Below, piece after piece: positions 3,080 to 37,256 of a DNA stretch of 64,000 bases (position 1 is its first letter; the number at the start of each line of letters is the position of its first letter). Position numbers and translations under genes: made by a program. The stretch comes from Bacteroidota bacterium. GTDB lineage: Bacteria; Bacteroidota; Ignavibacteria; Kapaibacteriales; UBA961. Below the pieces are notes generated by a model. That model saw only the letters and a program-made list of their open reading frames with translations. It did not search any database and was not told the DNA's origin. The stretch is from the NCBI GenBank assembly GCA_018266765.1, contig JAFDZU010000036.1, positions 22,240 through 86,239 of the forward strand. The letters run 5' to 3'.

Positions 3080-5029
3080 ATGAAAAATATTTTTTCTGGT
3101 TTTCTACTTTCAGCTTTTATTCTCATTGTATTGTCCGGTTGTGGACGTAAAGCGGTAGATCAAGCCGCTGATAAAAAAGGACCAAGTTATAACACCAAAC
3201 TTTGGAAAAAATTTGATAATATCCCACCTGGAGCAGACCCAAGTGTACCCGATTCATTAGGAGGAAACGGATTTGAGAAAATAGCAGATAAAATGGGATT
3301 TGTAACTTATACTCCCAAAGAAGAAGAGTTAAAATATTTTGGAGATTCTCGTGCTACCAAAGGTGGTAAAGTTACTACTATTATCAGTCGTTTTCCGTTC
3401 AATTTCCTTCCTTTTGGTAGAAATTCTCATTTAACTGAGAATCAAATAATCTGTGGTTTTGTTTATGAAACACTTCTCGGTTCACATCCAATAACACGTG
3501 ACTATGTACCTTCACTTGCAACTCATTGGAAAATTTCTCCTGATAAACTTACATATACATTCCGTCTTGACCCTCGTGCTCGTTTTTCAGACGGAACTCC
3601 ACTCACCACAAAAGACGTAGTTGCTACCTTTAAACTTATGATGGATGAAACAATATTAGACCCATCCCAACAATTGACATTTGGCAAATTTGAAGCACCG
3701 AATCCTCTTAGTAAATATATTTTTGAAGTTAAGTGCAAAGAACTTAATTTCAGAAATTTACTTTATTATTCAGGCACTTTTATTCTTCCTGAACATATTA
3801 TCGGAAAAATGACAGGAACTGAATTTATTGACAAGTGTCAGTTTTCAATGCCAACAGGAACCGGTCCTTATATTTTATTAGATAACGATATTAAAAAAGG
3901 ACAGCAATACTCACTTACACGTCGAGACGATTATTGGGCTAAAAATGACCCAATGAGCAAAAATGTAGCAAATTTCGACAGAATTCAATTTGACGTTGTT
4001 GAAGACCAAACAAATCTTGAATATGAAAAATTCAAGAAAGGAGATCAAGACTTCTTCTTATTTACTTCGTTAACTACAGAAAAGTGGCTTAAAGACAAGT
4101 ACGATGCAGTAGATAAAGGATGGATACAAAAACGACGTGTCTTTACAGATGCACCGTTTGGAAATTCAGGTATAGCTTTTAATATGCGAAAACCACCATT
4201 TAACGATATTCGTGTTCGGAAAGCATTCGCAAATCTCTTTAACCGTGAGTCAATCATTAGTAATTTATTGTTTGATGAGTATCAACCTACCGATTCTCAT
4301 CATGATAATTCTCCGTATGCAAATCCTGAAAGCCCTGTTGTTAGATTTAACCCTGAACTTGCTTCTTCCCTGTTAAAAGAAGCAGGTTGGACAAGTAAAA
4401 ATGCAGACGGAATTTTAATGAAAAATGGAAAACCTTTTACACTTGAATTTGGTATTCCAAAACAAGTTGAAAAGTTTGTTTTAATTTATCAACAAGATTT
4501 GAGATCTGCCGGAATTGACCTTCAGTTAAAAGTGCAAGATGGTAATACTCTTTTCAAAAATGCGATGGCACGTAATTTTACTATATGGTGGCAAAACTGG
4601 ACCGGACTTTTGATTCCAAATCCTGAAACATCATATTTATCGGCACTTGCTGATAAAGAAGATAATAATAATATTCCAGGATTTAAAAATCCACGAGTTG
4701 ATGCGTTGTGTAAACAGTATGACACTACTTTTTCTCGTAAAGAACAAATCAAAATTATACAAGAAATTGATAAAATCGTAGGAGAAACATATCCAGATGC
4801 TTTGGCTTGGTATCCAAAAGGAATTCGGATTGCCTATTGGAATAAATTCGGAATGCCTGAATATGTATTGGGTCGTACTACTCAATTTGGATATTTGGAT
4901 GCGACTATATTTAGTTTGTGGTGGTATGATGCAGAAAAAGCAAAAGCATTAGACGATGCAAAAAAATCTGGAGCATCGCTTCCAATTGGTGAAATACCTG
5001 TAATGTATTGGAAGAATTTTAAGGATTAG
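3080..5029 (+). CDS. ABC transporter substrate-binding lipoprotein, family 5 (peptide/nickel, YejA/OppA-like)
   Basis: Long SBP_bac_5-like protein. I prefer the ATG at 3080 over the TTG at 3068, giving MKNIFSGFLLSAFILIVLSGC with an LSGC lipobox. Followed by two permeases and two ATPases. Confidence 0.8.
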   Translation: MKNIFSGFLLSAFILIVLSGCGRKAVDQAADKKGPSYNTKLWKKFDNIPPGADPSVPDSLGGNGFEKIADKMGFVTYTPKEEELKYFGDSRATKGGKVTTIISRFPFNFLPFGRNSHLTENQIICGFVYETLLGSHPITRDYVPSLATHWKISPDKLTYTFRLDPRARFSDGTPLTTKDVVATFKLMMDETILDPSQQLTFGKFEAPNPLSKYIFEVKCKELNFRNLLYYSGTFILPEHIIGKMTGTEFIDKCQFSMPTGTGPYILLDNDIKKGQQYSLTRRDDYWAKNDPMSKNVANFDRIQFDVVEDQTNLEYEKFKKGDQDFFLFTSLTTEKWLKDKYDAVDKGWIQKRRVFTDAPFGNSGIAFNMRKPPFNDIRVRKAFANLFNRESIISNLLFDEYQPTDSHHDNSPYANPESPVVRFNPELASSLLKEAGWTSKNADGILMKNGKPFTLEFGIPKQVEKFVLIYQQDLRSAGIDLQLKVQDGNTLFKNAMARNFTIWWQNWTGLLIPNPETSYLSALADKEDNNNIPGFKNPRVDALCKQYDTTFSRKEQIKIIQEIDKIVGETYPDALAWYPKGIRIAYWNKFGMPEYVLGRTTQFGYLDATIFSLWWYDAEKAKALDDAKKSGASLPIGEIPVMYWKNFKD

Positions 5030-9904: not shown

Positions 9905-10930
9905 ATGAAAGTATTAGTTTATAGTATTCATGGTTTTGATAAAACTTTCTTAGAACATGCTGCTGGTGATAAACACGAACTGATATTTACTGAGGTTTCA
10001 CTAAATGCCGAAACAGCATATCTTGCAAAAGGTTGCGATGCTGTTGCTTTGTTTACATCAGATCATGCATCTTCGGACGTAGTAGAAACATTACATTCTA
10101 ACAATATCAGGTTTATAGCATTGAGATCAGTTGGTTATGAACATATAGATATTCTAAAAGCACAATCTTTGAGAATAAAAGTGGCAAATGTACCGTCATA
10201 TTCTCCATATGCTATTGCTGAATATACAGTAGCTTTATTACTTTCTCTCGTTCGTAAAATGAATGAAACTCAACAACTAATGAATAATAACAATTTTTTA
10301 CTCGATACTTTGGTCGGATTTGATTTACATGGAAAAACAATCGGAATTGTAGGAACGGGTAAAATAGGTTCAGCTTTTGTAAAAATAATGAATGGTTTTG
10401 GGTGTAAATTAATTGGTTGTGATATTAATGAAAATCTTCAATTAATAAAAGATACTGGAATACGATATACAAATTTAAAGGAATTGTGCCAGCAATCTGA
10501 TGTTATTTCTGTGAATTGTCCATTAAATTCTTCAACTAAATATATGTTTAACAAATCAGTATTTTCACAAATGAAACGTGGGGTTGTATTCCTCAATACT
10601 GCCAGAGGGGGGATTGTGAATACTGTTGATTTACTTGATGCTTTGGATGATGGAATTATAAAATATGCTGGTTTGGATGTGTATGAAAACGAAAAATCTA
10701 TTTTCTTTCATGACTTTACAGGAAAACAAATTGAAGATGAGTTGTTTCGAAACTTGCGATCTCGGTCAAATGTACTCATAACCGGACATCAAGCATTTTT
10801 AACAACGGAAGCTTTGGAGGGTATAGCTAGAACAACTATTTCCAATCTTGATGAATGGGAGAATTATGGAACATGTAAAAATGAAATTAAAATTAACTTT
10901 ACTTTTATCAAACAAAATTATGAAAAGTAA
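9905..10930 (+). CDS. ldhA: D-lactate dehydrogenase (D-isomer specific 2-hydroxyacid dehydrogenase)
   Basis: Colinear by eye with E. coli LdhA. Shared motifs: IALRSVGYEHID, GIVGTGKIG, DVISVNCPL, GLDVYENE and ITGHQAFLTTEAL. Confidence 0.85.
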   Translation: MKVLVYSIHGFDKTFLEHAAGDKHELIFTEVSLNAETAYLAKGCDAVALFTSDHASSDVVETLHSNNIRFIALRSVGYEHIDILKAQSLRIKVANVPSYSPYAIAEYTVALLLSLVRKMNETQQLMNNNNFLLDTLVGFDLHGKTIGIVGTGKIGSAFVKIMNGFGCKLIGCDINENLQLIKDTGIRYTNLKELCQQSDVISVNCPLNSSTKYMFNKSVFSQMKRGVVFLNTARGGIVNTVDLLDALDDGIIKYAGLDVYENEKSIFFHDFTGKQIEDELFRNLRSRSNVLITGHQAFLTTEALEGIARTTISNLDEWENYGTCKNEIKINFTFIKQNYEK

Positions 10931-13508
10931 TTATCATGCAATCTCTGTCTCAGAAATTGAAAAATTATTTGTCACAAGTAGTAATGGTTTAAACTCAGAA
11001 GTAGTATCAAAAAACAGAACTCAGTATGGAAAAAATGAACTTGTAGAGAAAAAGAAGAACCCTGCATATATCCTTTTTTTGCATCAATTTAAGGATATAA
11101 TGATATTGATTCTTGCCGTTGCCGCCCTCATAGCACTTTGGGTAGGTGATATAAAAGATACTGTAGTAATAGTTGTAATAATATTATTAAATGCAATCAT
11201 AGGATTTATTCAAGAATATCGTGCAGGAAAAGCTATCGAAGCACTTAAACGAATGTCAGCTCCGAATGCAACTGTCAGGCGAGACAGAAAAAACATGATT
11301 ATTCCTGCATCTGAATTAGTTCCCGGTGATGTTGTGCTATTAGAAGCAGGAGCTTTAATACCTGCTGATATTCGACTTACTGAAGTACATTCTTTGAAAA
11401 TTAATGAGTCATCTTTAACCGGGGAGTCCGAACCGGTTGAAAAAAAACTTGATAATTTAGTACAAATTGATTCTCCTGTTGGTGATAGAACAACTATGGC
11501 ATTCAAGTCAACGATTGTCACTTATGGGCGTGGAGAGGGGATAGTAGTTGCAATTGGGATGGATACCGAAATCGGACGTATTGCACAACTTCTCCAAGAA
11601 GAAGACAGTCAAACACCATTACAAAAACGATTAGCTGATTTTGGGAAAAAACTTTCTGCCGCAGTAATAGTTATATGCATAATTATTTTTTGCATTGGAT
11701 TGCTAAGAGGTGAAGACCCGATAATTATGTTGTTAACTTCCATTTCACTTGCAGTAGCCGCAATTCCTGAAGCTTTACCGGCTGTCGTTACAATTGCATT
11801 AGCACTCAGTGCAAAACGTATGGTTCATAAAAATGTCCTAATTAGAAAGTTACCTGCAGTTGAAACATTGGGTTCTGTATCATATATATGTTCGGATAAA
11901 ACAGGAACTATAACGCAAAATAAAATGACAGTTGTGGATATATGGTGTTTACCTAATCAAAAGCCATTGAGTGATTTTTCAACCGAAGAATTATTAATTC
12001 TTTGTATTGAACTAAATCATGATGTTTTAACTACTGATTCTACTCTACAGGGTGATCCAACCGAAATTGGACTTGTTGAATTTGCACGACAACAAAAAAT
12101 ATATCATCAAAATTGGATTAAAGACTATAAAAGAATCTTTGAATTACCTTTTGATTCTGATCGGAAAAGAATGTCGACTATTCATGCTTTTAATAATCAA
12201 TTGTTAGTAATTACTAAAGGAGCGGTTGAGTCAGTACTTGATATTTGTACAGATGAAGTAAATAATAATACTATAAATCAAATCACGCGTAATTTTGCAG
12301 AAAATGGCAAACGAGTTTTAGCATATTCTTATAAAATTATTGATACTTTGCCTAAAGTAATTTCAATTAATTCTATTGAAAATAATATGAGATTTGTTGG
12401 ACTGACAGCAATGATTGACCCACCAAGAATTGAAGCAAACAAAGCAATTAGTGATTGTTATTCTGCCGGGATTACACCAGTAATGATAACTGGCGACCAT
12501 CCTATAACAGCCAAAGCTATTGCTATTGAAACCGGAATAATCAGAAATGTAACTGATCTATTAATAACAGGTAGTGAATTATCAGCTTTATCCGATGATG
12601 AGTACGAACACAAATTGGAATTTATTAAAGTTTACGCTCGAGTTTCACCGGAACAAAAACTAAAAATTGTGAGAATATTACAAAAGAAAAACCATTTTGT
12701 AGCAATGACCGGAGATGGAGTCAATGATGCACCAGCCCTCAAACGAGCCGATATTGGTGTTGCAATGGGAATATCTGGAAGCGACGTTTCCAAAGAATCA
12801 GCTGATATGATATTATTGGATGATAATTTTGCAACAATTATAAATGCAGTAAAAGAAGGCAGAAGAATTTATGATAATATCAAGAAATTCGTTAAATATG
12901 TTATGACATGCAATAGTGGGGAAATCTGGACTGTTTTTTTAATTCCTCTCTTGGGAATGCCAGTTCCACTGTTGCCAATCCATATTTTATGGATTAATCT
13001 AGTTACGGATGGTTTACCTGGGCTTGCTATGACATCAGAGCCAGCTGATGATAATATTCTGAAACGTTCACCCCGTAAACCCGATGAGAGTATTTTTAGT
13101 GGAGGAATAGCATACCATATTCTTTGGGTAGGACTTCTCATAGGTGCAGTGAGTATTTTCACAGAATCTTGGGCATTCTATCATAATAATCATAAATGGC
13201 AAACTATGGTGTTTACTGTGCTATGTTTAAGTCAATTAGGTCATGCAATGGCGATTCGAAGTGAAATTAAATCTCTTTTTCAGCAAGGAGTTTTTAGTAA
13301 CAAACAATTAGCATGGTCTGTAATTTTTACTTTAGTTTTACAAATGGTTGTTATTTATATGCCTTATTTTCAAAAAATATTTGGAACGCAATCATTATCT
13401 TTTATGGAATTTATTATTTGTTTTGGATTATCAAGTATTGTATTTTGGGCAGTAGAGTTAGAAAAATTGATAAAGAGAAAATTGCAATTTAATCATAACA
13501 TAAATTAA
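10920..13508 (+). CDS. cation-transporting P-type ATPase (P2 type, Ca2+/Mg2+-like)
   Basis: Motifs TGES, phosphorylation site CSDKTGTITQNKMT, and hinge TGDGVNDAPALKRADIGVAMG. I prefer the ATG at 10920 (MKSNYHAISVSEIEKLF, a typical Cation_ATPase_N start) over the ORF-track start at 10848. Confidence 0.88.
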   Translation: MKSNYHAISVSEIEKLFVTSSNGLNSEVVSKNRTQYGKNELVEKKKNPAYILFLHQFKDIMILILAVAALIALWVGDIKDTVVIVVIILLNAIIGFIQEYRAGKAIEALKRMSAPNATVRRDRKNMIIPASELVPGDVVLLEAGALIPADIRLTEVHSLKINESSLTGESEPVEKKLDNLVQIDSPVGDRTTMAFKSTIVTYGRGEGIVVAIGMDTEIGRIAQLLQEEDSQTPLQKRLADFGKKLSAAVIVICIIIFCIGLLRGEDPIIMLLTSISLAVAAIPEALPAVVTIALALSAKRMVHKNVLIRKLPAVETLGSVSYICSDKTGTITQNKMTVVDIWCLPNQKPLSDFSTEELLILCIELNHDVLTTDSTLQGDPTEIGLVEFARQQKIYHQNWIKDYKRIFELPFDSDRKRMSTIHAFNNQLLVITKGAVESVLDICTDEVNNNTINQITRNFAENGKRVLAYSYKIIDTLPKVISINSIENNMRFVGLTAMIDPPRIEANKAISDCYSAGITPVMITGDHPITAKAIAIETGIIRNVTDLLITGSELSALSDDEYEHKLEFIKVYARVSPEQKLKIVRILQKKNHFVAMTGDGVNDAPALKRADIGVAMGISGSDVSKESADMILLDDNFATIINAVKEGRRIYDNIKKFVKYVMTCNSGEIWTVFLIPLLGMPVPLLPIHILWINLVTDGLPGLAMTSEPADDNILKRSPRKPDESIFSGGIAYHILWVGLLIGAVSIFTESWAFYHNNHKWQTMVFTVLCLSQLGHAMAIRSEIKSLFQQGVFSNKQLAWSVIFTLVLQMVVIYMPYFQKIFGTQSLSFMEFIICFGLSSIVFWAVELEKLIKRKLQFNHNIN

Positions 13509-13541: not shown

Positions 13542-14243
13542 ATGGAAAATTTACCTTTATTTATCAAAATTATATTTATCATAACTACCATTGTTACTAT
13601 GTGGTTATTTTATAAAGCATCAAATAACTCTAAAATAACAGTAATATTAATGTTATCTTGGGTGGTAGTACAAAGTGTAATTTCAATTTCGGGGTTTTAT
13701 ACTGTATTACCTGCGACTCCACCAAGATTCCCATTACTCATTTTGCCACCCTTATTATTAATTATGGGGTTATTCTCAACCTTAAAAGGAAGACAATACA
13801 TAGATGGATTAAATAAAAAAACTCTTACTATTCTGCATATCGTGAGAATTCCTGTTGAAATTGTATTGTTTTGGCTCTCTATTTATAAAGTAGTTCCAGA
13901 ACTAATGACCTTAGAAGGAAGAAATTTCGATATTCTATCCGGAATTTCAGCTCCAATAATATTTTATATTGTATTTTATAAACGAATACTAAGCAATTCA
14001 TTATTATTGGTTTGGAACATTGTGTGTCTGGGGTTATTGATAAATATTGTAATAAATGCAGTGCTATCAGCACCATTCCCATTTCAGCAGTTTGCATTTG
14101 ATCAGCCGAATATTGCAGTTCTCTATTTTCCGTTTGTTTGGTTACCGTGTTGTATTGTTCCCATAGTTTTACTTTCACATCTTGCTACTATTCGCCAATT
14201 GATGACGGAAAAGAAAAAAAATGCTAACTACTTTAATAATTAA
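13542..14243 (+). CDS. polytopic membrane protein of unknown function
   Basis: 233 aa, about 6 hydrophobic segments, no recognisable catalytic motif. Confidence 0.55.
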   Translation: MENLPLFIKIIFIITTIVTMWLFYKASNNSKITVILMLSWVVVQSVISISGFYTVLPATPPRFPLLILPPLLLIMGLFSTLKGRQYIDGLNKKTLTILHIVRIPVEIVLFWLSIYKVVPELMTLEGRNFDILSGISAPIIFYIVFYKRILSNSLLLVWNIVCLGLLINIVINAVLSAPFPFQQFAFDQPNIAVLYFPFVWLPCCIVPIVLLSHLATIRQLMTEKKKNANYFNN

Positions 14244-14466
14244 ATATTATAGCTCAGATTTGAATTTTATATTTCGAGCAACTTCAATACATTTTTTTAA
14301 TTTGAAGTTAAATTTTACTTAGAAACAATCCAACATAACAGTTATTCCGTATTTTATAAAAATAAACGTTGTCTATTTTCATAAAAAGTTCTTATTTTTG
14401 GAGTGAAGCGTTGATTGATGGCGTACTTAATTAATTTTCACGCCATTTACTTACTTACTATTTTAC

Positions 14467-14472
14467 AAGGAG
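14467..14472 (+). promoter_or_regulatory. Shine-Dalgarno AAGGAG for the Cys-rich precursor gene
   Basis: AAGGAG lies 7 nt upstream of the ATG at 14480. Confidence 0.6.
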
Positions 14473-14479
14473 ATTCTCT

Positions 14480-14779
14480 ATGAATGGAAAAGATTTTGGA
14501 AAACTCATGATTGGCGCGGCTGTTGCCGGACTTATCAGTGGTGGAGCAGCTTTTGCTTCTGACGGTGGAAAAAAGCCAGCTAAAAAAGCTGCTAAAGCTC
14601 ACAAAGCATCTACTAAAGCCGCAAAAGAACATGCATGTAAAGGTATGAATGAATGCAAAGGCAAAGGCGGTTGTAAAACAGCTGATAATAGTTGCAAAGG
14701 CAAAAATGCTTGTAAAGGCAAAGGTGGTTGCTCAACTGCAATGGCTACTCCTAAAAAAGCAGATGAACCGAAGAAATAA
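14480..14779 (+). CDS. secreted Cys-rich small protein, candidate bufferin-type (BufA2 / 6-Cys class) RiPP precursor
   Basis: 99 aa. Sec signal MNGKDFGKLMIGAAVAGLISGGAAFA|SD, then a Lys/Ala-rich spacer. Two tandem 3-Cys modules follow: ACKGMNECKGKGGCKTA and SCKGKNACKGKGGCSTA. Sits directly upstream of a DUF692 enzyme gene. Confidence 0.7.
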   Translation: MNGKDFGKLMIGAAVAGLISGGAAFASDGGKKPAKKAAKAHKASTKAAKEHACKGMNECKGKGGCKTADNSCKGKNACKGKGGCSTAMATPKKADEPKK

Positions 14780-14815
14780 CTCAATAGTTATACTTCAGTC
14801 TCTCTCAAAATGAAT

Positions 14816-14852
14816 AGGTGATGATAACTATACAAGTGTCATCACCTTTTTT
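14816..14852 (+). terminator. intrinsic terminator between the precursor and enzyme genes
   Basis: 9-bp stem AGGTGATGA / TCATCACCT with a 14-nt loop, followed by TTTTT. Confidence 0.65.
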
Positions 14853-14874
14853 ATAACATAAACAAGAAAATATT

Positions 14875-15705
14875 ATGACACCAAACCGATGGAATTTACC
14901 TGAACTAGGATTTGGAGTGGGATTAAGAACAGTACATTTTCAACATATAATTTCAGAAAAACCGGAAGTAGATTGGTTTGAAATTATTTCTGAAAATTTT
15001 ATGGATACGAAAGGAAAGCCATCCTATATTTTAGATATTGTAAAGGAAAAATATCCTATTGTTATGCATGGTGTTTCACTTTCCATCGCCGGAACAGATT
15101 CGCTGAATATTCCATATATATATAAACTCAAAGAACTCGCAAATCGTGTAAATACTCCTTGGGTTTCTGACCACTTATGCTGGACAGGTTGTAATGCACA
15201 CAATCTCCACGACTTACTCCCAATACTCTATACTGAAGAAAATATACGACATATAGCTTCTAGAATTAGAACAGTTGCTGAAATTATTGAACGTCCAATT
15301 GTTCTCGAAAACGTCTCGACCTACGCTGAATTTTCGATTTCAACAATGTCAGAATGGGAATTCATCAGTAGATTACTTGAAGAAGCTGATTGTGGATTAT
15401 TATTAGATGTCAATAATATTTATGTGAGTTCTTTCAATCACGGATTTGACCCCATTGAATATATAAATGCAATGCCATTCGATAGAATTTGCCAATATCA
15501 TTTAGCTGGGCATACCAACAAAGGTACTCACATCCTCGATACTCATAGTGACCATGTAGTAGATGAAGTTTGGGAATTGTACCGGTATTGTTTCCAAAAG
15601 ACAGGAGAAAGAGCTACTTTGCTTGAATGGGATGAAAACATTCCTTCGTTTGATGTAGTTCATAATGAAGCACTTAAAGCTAAAAATTATCGTTCATTTA
15701 TATAA
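14875..15705 (+). CDS. DUF692 / MNIO family (MbnB/TglH/ChrH-like) RiPP precursor-modifying enzyme
   Basis: 276 aa. Full-length match by eye to the UPF0276/DUF692 consensus: GFGVGLR, DWFEIISENFM, HGVSLSI, VSDHLCW, LENVSTY, LLLDVNNIYVS, HLAGH, LDTHSD and LLEWDENIP. Confidence 0.85.
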   Translation: MTPNRWNLPELGFGVGLRTVHFQHIISEKPEVDWFEIISENFMDTKGKPSYILDIVKEKYPIVMHGVSLSIAGTDSLNIPYIYKLKELANRVNTPWVSDHLCWTGCNAHNLHDLLPILYTEENIRHIASRIRTVAEIIERPIVLENVSTYAEFSISTMSEWEFISRLLEEADCGLLLDVNNIYVSSFNHGFDPIEYINAMPFDRICQYHLAGHTNKGTHILDTHSDHVVDEVWELYRYCFQKTGERATLLEWDENIPSFDVVHNEALKAKNYRSFI

Positions 15706-36116: not shown

Positions 36117-37256
36117 ATGAAAACCATCAGAGTTCTTGTGGCAGACGAATCAGTATTTGTACGTCAACAAATAACGAAGATGTTATCAGGTCGGGCAGAT
36201 ATTACCATAATTGGTGGTGCCAGTAATGGTGGGGAAGCGGTTGTAAAGGTTTTAGATTTGCTCCCAAATGTTGTGGTGATGGGATGTAAGATGCCTTTAA
36301 TGAATGGTTTTGAAGCAATGAAGAAAATAATTGAACTCACGGGAATTCCCGTGATAATGTTAATTATTAACAGTAAAAAACCTGAAAACGACATCGAAGA
36401 AGCACGTTCAAACGGAGCATCTGATTGGGTAGTACTTAAATCTGCATTCATATCAAATGTGTTATTAACAATTAAAGTTGAGTTAATTGATAAAATTCTA
36501 AAAGTTTCAGAACATAATACATCTAAGATTATAAAACCAACTATTCATGAAATATCAAACCCCAAAGTAGCAGATTCAACGAACAACTTACCACCCGAAA
36601 ATGATGAATATATTAAATCTATTATTAATAAAGATTTGATAAAACAAAGAGTTCCCAAGATTGTTGAAATAGTTGTAATAGGGGTTTCAACCGGTGGTCC
36701 AATGGCACTTCATCAACTTGTTCCAAAACTTCCGGCTAATTTTCCTGTTCCAATAGTAATAGTCCAGCACATGCCTGCACATTTTACAGCTACTCTTGCT
36801 ATTAGATTGAATGAAATGTCCGATATACAAGTAACAGAAGCTGTTAATGGTATGAATCTTTCTGCAGGAAGCGTTTATCTTGCAAAGGGCGGAAAACAAA
36901 TTCAAGTTACTAAGGATCGAAAGATTCGACTTTCAGATGATGATTTTAATGTCATATACAAACCTTCAATTGATGTCTTAGTAAATTCGATTATAGATGT
37001 TTATGGTGGTAATGTTGTTGGAGTGATGATGACAGGATTAGGAAATGATGGTGTATTAGCTCTCAAGCGACTCCATCGAAAGGGTGGGTATATTATAGCA
37101 CAAGATGAACAATCGAGTATCGTTTTTGGAATGCCAAAAGCAGTTATAGATGCTCAAATAGTGAATGAGATTTCATCATTAAAAGATTTAGCCGAAACAA
37201 TCTGTTTGTGTGTTGGAATCCACGCTTTTAATCCTGAAAACGAGAATAATTTTTGA
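36117..37256 (+). CDS. cheB: CheB-like protein-glutamate methylesterase with degenerate receiver domain
   Basis: Catalytic domain intact: GVSTGGP (Ser), VQHMPAHFT (His), MTGLGNDG (Asp). The N-terminal REC-like domain has VVVMGCKMP, so Gly56 (codon GGA at 36282-36284) replaces the phospho-acceptor Asp. Confidence 0.8.
   Translation: MKTIRVLVADESVFVRQQITKMLSGRADITIIGGASNGGEAVVKVLDLLPNVVVMGCKMPLMNGFEAMKKIIELTGIPVIMLIINSKKPENDIEEARSNGASDWVVLKSAFISNVLLTIKVELIDKILKVSEHNTSKIIKPTIHEISNPKVADSTNNLPPENDEYIKSIINKDLIKQRVPKIVEIVVIGVSTGGPMALHQLVPKLPANFPVPIVIVQHMPAHFTATLAIRLNEMSDIQVTEAVNGMNLSAGSVYLAKGGKQIQVTKDRKIRLSDDDFNVIYKPSIDVLVNSIIDVYGGNVVGVMMTGLGNDGVLALKRLHRKGGYIIAQDEQSSIVFGMPKAVIDAQIVNEISSLKDLAETICLCVGIHAFNPENENNF

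Follow-up and report, generated by a model that had tools for sequence, protein, structure and literature searches.

A conserved two-gene bufferin-2-like locus without BufC or DoxX in an Ignavibacteria/Kapaibacteria-like bacterium

Organization of the locus

Bufferins and captophorins are among the largest classes of peptides that are made on ribosomes and modified after translation (RiPPs). Here, we describe a bufferin-2-like RiPP locus made up of two genes, located in a 64,000-nucleotide stretch of DNA (the window) that is part of a 176-kb metagenome contig. The first gene, bufA2-like (positions 14480 to 14779, forward strand), encodes a 99-residue precursor peptide, and the second, bufB-type (14875 to 15705, forward strand), encodes a 276-residue enzyme of the MNIO/DUF692 family. 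The open reading frame (ORF) of the MNIO starts 95 nucleotides (nt) past the stop codon of the precursor gene, and a convergent menA gene begins 21 nt past the MNIO stop. An earlier note on this DNA had pointed to a signal-bearing six-Cys precursor, to two three-Cys modules within it and to a DUF692 gene 95 nt downstream, and all of these features are present at the positions given here and below. A chance ORF or an annotation artefact was ruled out by homology and purifying selection. The window holds neither a second Cys-rich precursor nor a second MNIO.

The GC content of the window is 33.4%, and its purA gene shares 91% identity with purA of an Ignavibacteriae metagenome-assembled genome (MAG) and 85% with that of a Kapaibacterium MAG. 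These identities mark the host as an uncultured Ignavibacteria/Kapaibacteria-like member of the Fibrobacteres-Chlorobi-Bacteroidetes (FCB) group, in agreement with the AT-rich FCB-group genome that had been proposed earlier.

The precursor peptide

The precursor consists of MNGKDFGKLMIGAAVAGLISGGAAFA followed, after the predicted cleavage site, by SDGGKKPAKKAAKAHKASTKAAKEHACKGMNECKGKGGCKTADNSCKGKNACKGKGGCSTAMATPKKADEPKK. Residues 1-26 (14480 to 14557, forward strand) form a predicted signal peptide, cleaved after AFA and in front of SD, which was read from the sequence by its n-, h- and c-regions and by comparison with related precursors. A positively charged n-region and a hydrophobic core of 18 residues precede its AFA cleavage motif, which is followed by Ser. 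Homologous leaders of the form (RR/RQ)DFxKLxxGAAVAG occur in related precursors, where RR stands in place of the GK seen here. A Lys/Ala-rich spacer separates the signal peptide from the core peptide (14633 to 14740, forward strand), which comprises two three-Cys modules, ACKGMNECKGKGGCKTA and SCKGKNACKGKGGCSTA, the presumed modification sites. The six Cys lie at residues 53, 59, 65, 72, 78 and 84, and the two 17-residue modules are identical at 13 positions.

A total of 3,798 precursor homologues were found at E <= 1e-3. The six-Cys core of the window precursor corresponds to one copy of the unit HxCKGxNxCKGxGGCKxxDxxCxGKNxCKGKGGC, which 12-Cys homologues carry twice. The precursor's first five Cys keep the register of canonical BufA2, but it has no counterpart to the C-terminal hairpin in which the sixth canonical Cys resides. 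The peptide had been described as a bufferin-like precursor, and it does match the NCBIfam BufA2 model (NF050166; E = 4.1e-11, profile positions 16-69 of 79); its score of 42.9 bits, however, falls below the curated cut-off of 60, and the single module and the missing hairpin set it apart from the canonical form. In control scorings with the same model, canonical proteobacterial BufA2 reached 90-95 bits, 12-Cys tandem forms 65-68 bits and single-module six-Cys forms 36-46 bits. Locus L027, which has a single-module precursor, does carry BufC. The single 6/12-Cys unit, the five Cys in BufA2 register and the missing hairpin together place the precursor in a sub-threshold subgroup of the Buf_6/12Cys ('Cys-Lys' captophorin) group, outside the curated BufA2 equivalog. 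It has the signal peptide, the six Cys in Cys-Lys-Gly context and the position directly upstream of the MNIO gene by which Buf_6/12Cys precursors are recognized.

Twin-arginine-like starts (S/T-RR-x-F-x-K-L) were observed in many Buf2-type precursors of Planctomycetota, Acidobacteriota and Verrucomicrobiota, both as ORFs (loci L008, L010-L013, L015, L017-L019, L021, L023 and L029) and as proteins (P0005, P0018, P0035 and P0037). The homologous position is GK in the clade of the window and RQ in its FCB sisters. The bufferin literature compared here speaks of Sec signal peptides only, with no mention of 'Tat' or 'twin-arginine'. Export of the pre-modified peptide by twin-arginine translocation (Tat) would be another solution to the problem of export timing, which is taken up below.

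The MNIO enzyme

The enzyme carries no signal peptide and matches PF05114 over nearly its full length (E = 1.5e-105, profile positions 2-261 of 263). Against the NCBIfam BufB model (NF050167) it scores 344 bits, above the equivalog cut-off of 310, and so the earlier assignment to the DUF692/MNIO family stands. The next-best model, HvfB, gives 267 bits and stays below its own cut-off of 360; the ApyH, ChrH and MbnB models failed as well. The AlphaFold2 model is a TIM barrel with a predicted local distance difference test score (pLDDT) of 85.5, and its best Foldseek matches in the PDB are 3BWW (TM-scores 0.78/0.84), TglH and MbnB.

Alignment to the MbnB, TglH and 3BWW chains, with MbnB H54, H90, E133, D163, N166, H192, D208, H210 and E239 as reference ligands, shows that all nine metal ligands are intact (H65, H100, E145, D178, N181, H209, D222, H224 and E251). 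In the alignment of 72 relatives, 71-72 have the identical residue in each of these columns; the sole change occurs in L007. Likewise, D253, the counterpart of the catalytic base FonB-D249 described in PMC13097082, is invariant, and the conserved iron ligands, which the earlier note had proposed to check, are thus retained together with the catalytic Asp. The residue directly after this Asp is acidic in 'Cys-Lys'-type MNIOs and Phe in EGKCG-type MNIOs (PMC13097082); in the window enzyme it is Glu254.

A few differences distinguish the enzymes of the window's clade. The substitutions G72A and Q135A are fixed there, at positions that are conserved in at least 97% of the other relatives; the aligned chains of 3BWW, TglH and 7TCR MbnB, too, have Gln where residue 135 falls. 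The clade's enzymes are also devoid of the C-terminal tail of 10-60 residues seen in their nearest relatives. Outside the FCB group, many of the enzymes most similar to the window MNIO end, after a variable linker, in a VPHPLHHVxAEVE-like C-terminal motif (loci L008-L010, L012, L013, L016, L018, L020, L023, L026, L032, L034 and L070), and this motif is absent from the window's clade.

Absence of BufC and DoxX

The gene order bufABC is described as strict in bufferin clusters, where DoxX often, though not always, joins as a fourth gene (PMC12452194). At the window locus, no BufC gene follows the MNIO gene and DoxX is missing, which bears out the earlier view that the locus is more compact than bufABCD operons. 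The search for both was exhaustive over about 83 kb of the contig (the window plus 10 kb on each side) and over three related contigs of 8-11 kb (L001, L006 and L007). For BufC we used a jackhmmer profile, an FCB-specific hidden Markov model (HMM) and hmmsearch --max, and for DoxX an HMM built from sister loci. No BufC (DUF2063/PME-1) was detected in the window, its flanks or the three related contigs, with nothing better than E ~0.5, and no DoxX match was found in the same search space. Pattern scans of GTDB representative genomes, a weak approach that used two short motifs, returned FCB-type BufC in eight MAGs and none in the MAGs of L006 and L007.

With the jackhmmer profile, BufC was found directly 3' of the MNIO gene in 69 of the 76 loci scanned. 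Outside the window's clade, it is missing in only two singleton loci with enough downstream sequence, L020 and L056. The former (L020:3751-5299) is a Buf2-type locus of a Planctomycetaceae MAG in which a 479-residue ORF comes next, and the latter (L056:7528-8801) combines a Buf1/DUF2282-type precursor with an MNIO in a Caldora cyanobacterial MAG and is followed by a convergent gene. In six of the 69 BufC-bearing loci (L022, L024, L028, L030, L037 and L039), MNIO and BufC are fused in one reading frame, the C-terminal 280-363 residues aligning to BufC. These natural fusions are the counterpart of the engineered HvfBC fusion.

Conserved neighbours were considered as stand-ins for BufC, and only menA and a secreted PDZ/type IX secretion system (T9SS) protein recur near the locus. 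Two further candidates, both upstream, were set aside as not common to the clade: a 233-residue membrane ORF in the window and a 544-residue ORF in L006 and L007.

Conservation and selection of the two-gene form

The three related contigs come from different assemblies with a GC content of 37-40%, and their MNIOs are 86-90% identical to that of the window. Each shows the same layout of precursor, 96-113-nt spacer, MNIO and convergent menA, while the upstream genes differ; the core of the precursor is nearly invariant across the clade. The two-gene form is therefore a trait of the lineage rather than a peculiarity of a single contig.

Six retrieved loci, L002, L004/L005, L226, L227 and L228, encode the next most similar MNIOs (64-70% identity) and stem from Ignavibacteria or Kapaibacteria MAGs wherever an organism label exists. 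In all six, a HvfC_N/BufC gene overlaps the MNIO stop, and DoxX is present in all but L228. The window's clade has neither gene at the locus, while its sisters carry BufC and, L228 excepted, DoxX; both genes thus disappeared from the locus along the branch that gave rise to this clade.

The bufABCD-type operons of these sisters share with the window the signal peptide, a near residue-for-residue match of the form MN(R/G)(Q/K)DF(S/G)KLM(V/I)GAAVAG(L/M)ISG, and the Lys-rich spacer, but their precursors have cores of CKGKDGCKG modules. They further differ in the translational coupling of BufC to the MNIO, in the usual presence of DoxX, and in MNIOs that keep G72 and Q135 together with a C-terminal tail of 10-40 residues. 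Some of them add a redoxin or an extracytoplasmic function (ECF) sigma/anti-sigma pair. In the Kapaibacteria-like sister L227, three small ORFs precede the MNIO gene (L227:3112-3886), of which only 3439-3654 encodes a CKG-type precursor; its start looks truncated relative to L002.

Both genes of the window locus are under strong purifying selection. For the precursor, the ratio of nonsynonymous to synonymous substitution rates (dN/dS) against the three related contigs is 0.05-0.11. For the MNIO within the clade, the proportion of nonsynonymous differences (pN) is 0.05-0.09 and that of synonymous differences (pS) is 0.69-0.87, that is, saturated, and the amino-acid identity of 86-92% compares with 66-81% for the neighbouring menA. 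Recent horizontal transfer was rejected as the cause of the high MNIO identity, since the MNIO and menA alike show saturation at synonymous sites.

Comparison with characterized systems

The closest characterized counterpart is the Buf2 system of Caulobacter vibrioides (BufA2-BufB2-BufC2). Both systems have a signal-bearing Cys-Lys-Gly precursor with a C-x5-C-x5-C-x6-C-x5-C register of the first five Cys, a precursor gene directly before the MNIO gene, and an MNIO within the BufB equivalog; the C. vibrioides buf2 operon is also without DoxX (PMC11626156). Unlike Buf2, the window locus has no bufC, and its precursor, which has no canonical C-terminal hairpin, reaches 42.9 bits where canonical members reach 90-95. 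The hosts differ too, being Ignavibacteria/Kapaibacteria-like for the window and Pseudomonadota for C. vibrioides Buf2.

The HvfABC (oxazolin) and FonABC (fontiphorin) systems share the MNIO fold and ligands with the window enzyme, as seen with the HvfB homologue 3BWW (E = 1.2e-48, TM-scores 0.78-0.84). By analogy, the product expected in all of them would be a 5-thiooxazole copper binder exported by means of a signal peptide. In contrast to the window, their precursors carry EGKCG (Lys-Cys) repeats, and Phe instead of an acidic residue follows the catalytic Asp. HvfB depends strictly on a PME-1 partner and FonB forms a stable heterodimer with FonC, whereas the window locus has no partner gene.

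In this last respect, the window resembles MovX of a Vibrio methanobactin-like cluster, which also lacks a separate partner gene. MovX is the one MNIO reported to act without a partner; an extra winged-helix domain may replace it, and a C-terminal Asn is modified (PMC12452194). The window enzyme, unlike MovX, is a bare 276-residue TIM barrel without a winged-helix domain, at the short end of the range of its relatives.

Interpretation and alternative explanations

The earlier note had proposed a metallophore-type RiPP system, and this proposal is strengthened by the BufB-type score of the MNIO, its intact ligands and the affiliation of the precursor with the Buf_6/12Cys group, metal binding being expected by analogy. 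With the characterized relatives as a guide, the locus is probably a functional Cys-modifying captophorin-type system. Buf1 contains 5-thiooxazoles and binds Cu(I)/Cu(II) in the periplasm. Every MNIO-PME1 cluster tested to date installs 5-thiooxazoles, and these clusters have been grouped as captophorins (PMC13097082). For Buf2, the evidence for thiooxazoles consists of mass loss and ultraviolet absorption data rather than a full structure (PMC12452194). The RiPP class itself is known; what is new here is a conserved and selected two-gene form with neither partner nor DoxX in cis.

In the pathway that we propose, both genes would be transcribed from one promoter upstream of the precursor gene, and a leaky terminator hairpin between them would hold the enzyme at a lower level than the precursor. 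The iron-dependent MNIO would oxidize Cys of the CKG motifs to 5-thiooxazoles in the cytoplasm, as its family membership and intact active site suggest. The signal peptide would then route the peptide through Sec and be cut off after AFA, and the Lys-rich product of about 73 residues would chelate copper in the periplasm, as characterized relatives do.

The current view of the field is that an MNIO needs its PME-1 partner for substrate recognition and, in the case of HvfB, also for the active oxidation state of the iron. BufB1 and BufC1 together are reported to be required and sufficient (PMC11626156); HvfB without HvfC gives no product and reaches its mixed-valent diiron state only with HvfC (bioRxiv 10.64898/2026.07.17.739211); and FonB with FonC was reconstituted as a stable heterodimer (PMC13097082). 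Since the partner is indispensable in these tested relatives, the missing BufC is a mechanistic problem, which the earlier note had overlooked. Our overall reading, put forward tentatively, is that of a functional, reduced two-gene bufferin-2/'Cys-Lys captophorin' RiPP locus whose MNIO most likely acts partner-free. That the window enzyme works without a DUF2063 partner is, taken for itself, possible though open to some doubt. More speculative again is the mechanism of a minimal two-gene captophorin pathway, in which a bare 276-residue TIM barrel would recognize its signal-bearing precursor, reach the mixed-valent iron state and form 5-thiooxazoles without a DUF2063/RiPP recognition element (RRE) protein.

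Several points weigh against partner-free action. The biochemical results just cited all tie activity to the partner, and a precursor and MNIO with no PME-1 anywhere occurred in only one of 864 complete genomes with Buf_6/12Cys (PMC12452194, Table 3). The exhaustive partner search extended over 83 kb of one contig and three contigs of 8-11 kb, and the MAG-wide BufC scans rested on two short peptide patterns in MAGs that are incomplete. The short C-terminal tail was dropped as a mark of partner loss, since certain MNIOs with a linked BufC, such as those of the cyanobacterial Buf1 type, have tails just as short. Finally, the MNIO of L007, a MAG labelled Ignavibacteria, carries E251G/W252C (LLGCDEN versus LLEWDEN, L007:3740-3760) and has thereby lost the last iron ligand, which may reflect real decay or an assembly error.

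The requirement for a partner in the tested relatives and the presence of PME-1 in 863 of 864 complete genomes with Buf2 and an MNIO (PMC12452194, Table 3) would both be accounted for if the same chemistry drew on a DUF2063/RRE partner supplied in trans, most plausibly BufC from another, complete bufABC(D) operon. Complete operons do exist in the sister lineages, the window precursor has a signal peptide that hardly differs from those of the sister precursors served by BufC, and MNIO genes outnumber DUF2063 genes in some genomes, such as Legionella with seven versus six (PMC12452194). We nevertheless regard a partner in trans as rather unlikely: PME-1 genes are reported to adjoin an MNIO almost always (PMC13097082), BufC was found neither in the 83 kb nor, by pattern scan, in two MAGs of the clade, and the enzyme itself no longer has the tail that in the sisters overlaps bufC, and differs at two near-invariant residues. 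If the locus is instead a relic, the MNIO would have become idle on this peptide after the loss of bufC, leaving an unmodified Cys/Lys-rich peptide as a periplasmic thiol metal binder, or the MNIO in another role. Such a state appears improbable, given that the MNIO is more conserved than menA with low nonsynonymous against saturated synonymous change, that three of the four clade members keep all ligands and the catalytic Asp, and that gene order, spacing and attenuator are conserved across genomes of 33-40% GC; pointing the other way are the ligand change in L007, the existence of stand-alone precursors of the window type (e.g., P0117), and the unmodified or non-functional precursors proposed for orphan cases (PMC12452194, Discussion).

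A different modification of the precursor, for example to an oxazolone-thioamide or a cross-link, could also have been made possible by the changes in the enzyme and the lack of a partner. MNIO reactions are very diverse (PMC12452194, Table 1 text), the Buf2 modification has not been solved structurally (PMC12452194, Discussion), and the clade-specific changes fall on conserved MNIO positions. An enzyme that lies inside the BufB equivalog and is 64-70% identical to ordinary BufC-linked MNIOs makes other chemistry hardly likely, as does the uniform formation of 5-thiooxazoles by the MNIO-PME1-type enzymes tested so far (PMC13097082). Partner-independent action is favoured over a partner in trans, a relic or a different chemistry.

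The window's clade offers a selected BufB-type enzyme without a partner in cis, partner-dependent relatives of 64-70% identity and few diagnostic differences between them, and the question of partner need is therefore directly testable. Should the enzyme turn out to act by itself, thiooxazoles could be installed with a simpler tool, and one would have to ask what prevents Sec from exporting the peptide too early. Should a partner act in trans, the locus would be an ordinary satellite of a known system.

Expression signals

A block of about 75 nt upstream of the precursor gene (14375-14450) is conserved in the window, L001, L006 and L007 despite their differing upstream genes, and could be a candidate site for a regulator, perhaps a metal-responsive one. 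It contains TATTTTTG (14393 to 14400, forward strand), embedded in a stretch, CTTATTTTTGG, in which the four loci do not differ. This element matches TAnnTTTG, the consensus of the Bacteroidota-type -7 box, and it is on this basis read as a candidate promoter; a sigma-70 scan at the same position gave nothing above chance. Further downstream, the alignment reveals a leader segment (14415 to 14448, forward strand), conserved in 3-4 of the four loci, with an inverted repeat GGCGT (14420-14424) and ACGCC (14440-14444) that are separated by N15 around a TTAATTAA palindrome. The repeat is possibly an operator or a 5' untranslated region hairpin. As the consensus RNA fold is weak (-2.8 kcal/mol), the leader was set aside as an RNA structure and kept as a DNA-level promoter/operator candidate only. 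An Rfam search of the leader and the intergenic region returned chance-level matches only.

The start codon of the precursor gene is preceded, at a distance of 6 nt, by a Shine-Dalgarno-like AAGGAGA (14467 to 14473, forward strand) with a GGAGA core that is invariant in the four loci, and no comparable ribosome-binding site was seen for the MNIO gene. Between the two genes lies a terminator hairpin, recognized by fold and conservation, with the arms GGTGATGA and TCATCACC and a subsequent run of six T (14817 to 14852, forward strand), which presumably acts as an attenuator. Its minimum free energy is -17.2 kcal/mol (z = -5.4). Equivalent hairpins are found in L001, L006 and L007 (z = -6 to -8), with a compensatory G-C to A-U change in L007. 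The distance from the T-run to the MNIO start codon is only about 22 nt and leaves no room for a separate promoter; we therefore infer that the MNIO is expressed by terminator read-through, which would keep the precursor in excess over the enzyme. Terminator read-through is the usual way in which RiPP operons maintain such an excess.

Genomic surroundings

Between a P-type cation ATPase gene (10848-13508) and the precursor gene lies the 233-residue multi-pass membrane ORF mentioned above (13542-14243, forward strand), which has no Pfam or NCBIfam match and does not adjoin the locus in L001, L006 or L007. The window further contains the housekeeping genes pyrF, folD, lpxB, lpxK, recN, secDF, purA and guaB, as well as proteins with T9SS tails and a gene for the chemotaxis methylesterase CheB (36117-37256, forward strand; 324 bits, above cut-off). 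The presence of CheB fits Ignavibacteria-like rather than classical Bacteroidia biology. At 9-19 kb past the right end of the window (L240:12937-21455), an alternative-complex-III-like gene set encodes ActD, NrfD, a Mo/Fe-S subunit and multihaem cytochromes. This set includes a gene for a SCO1/SenC copper chaperone, the only copper-related gene seen near the locus.

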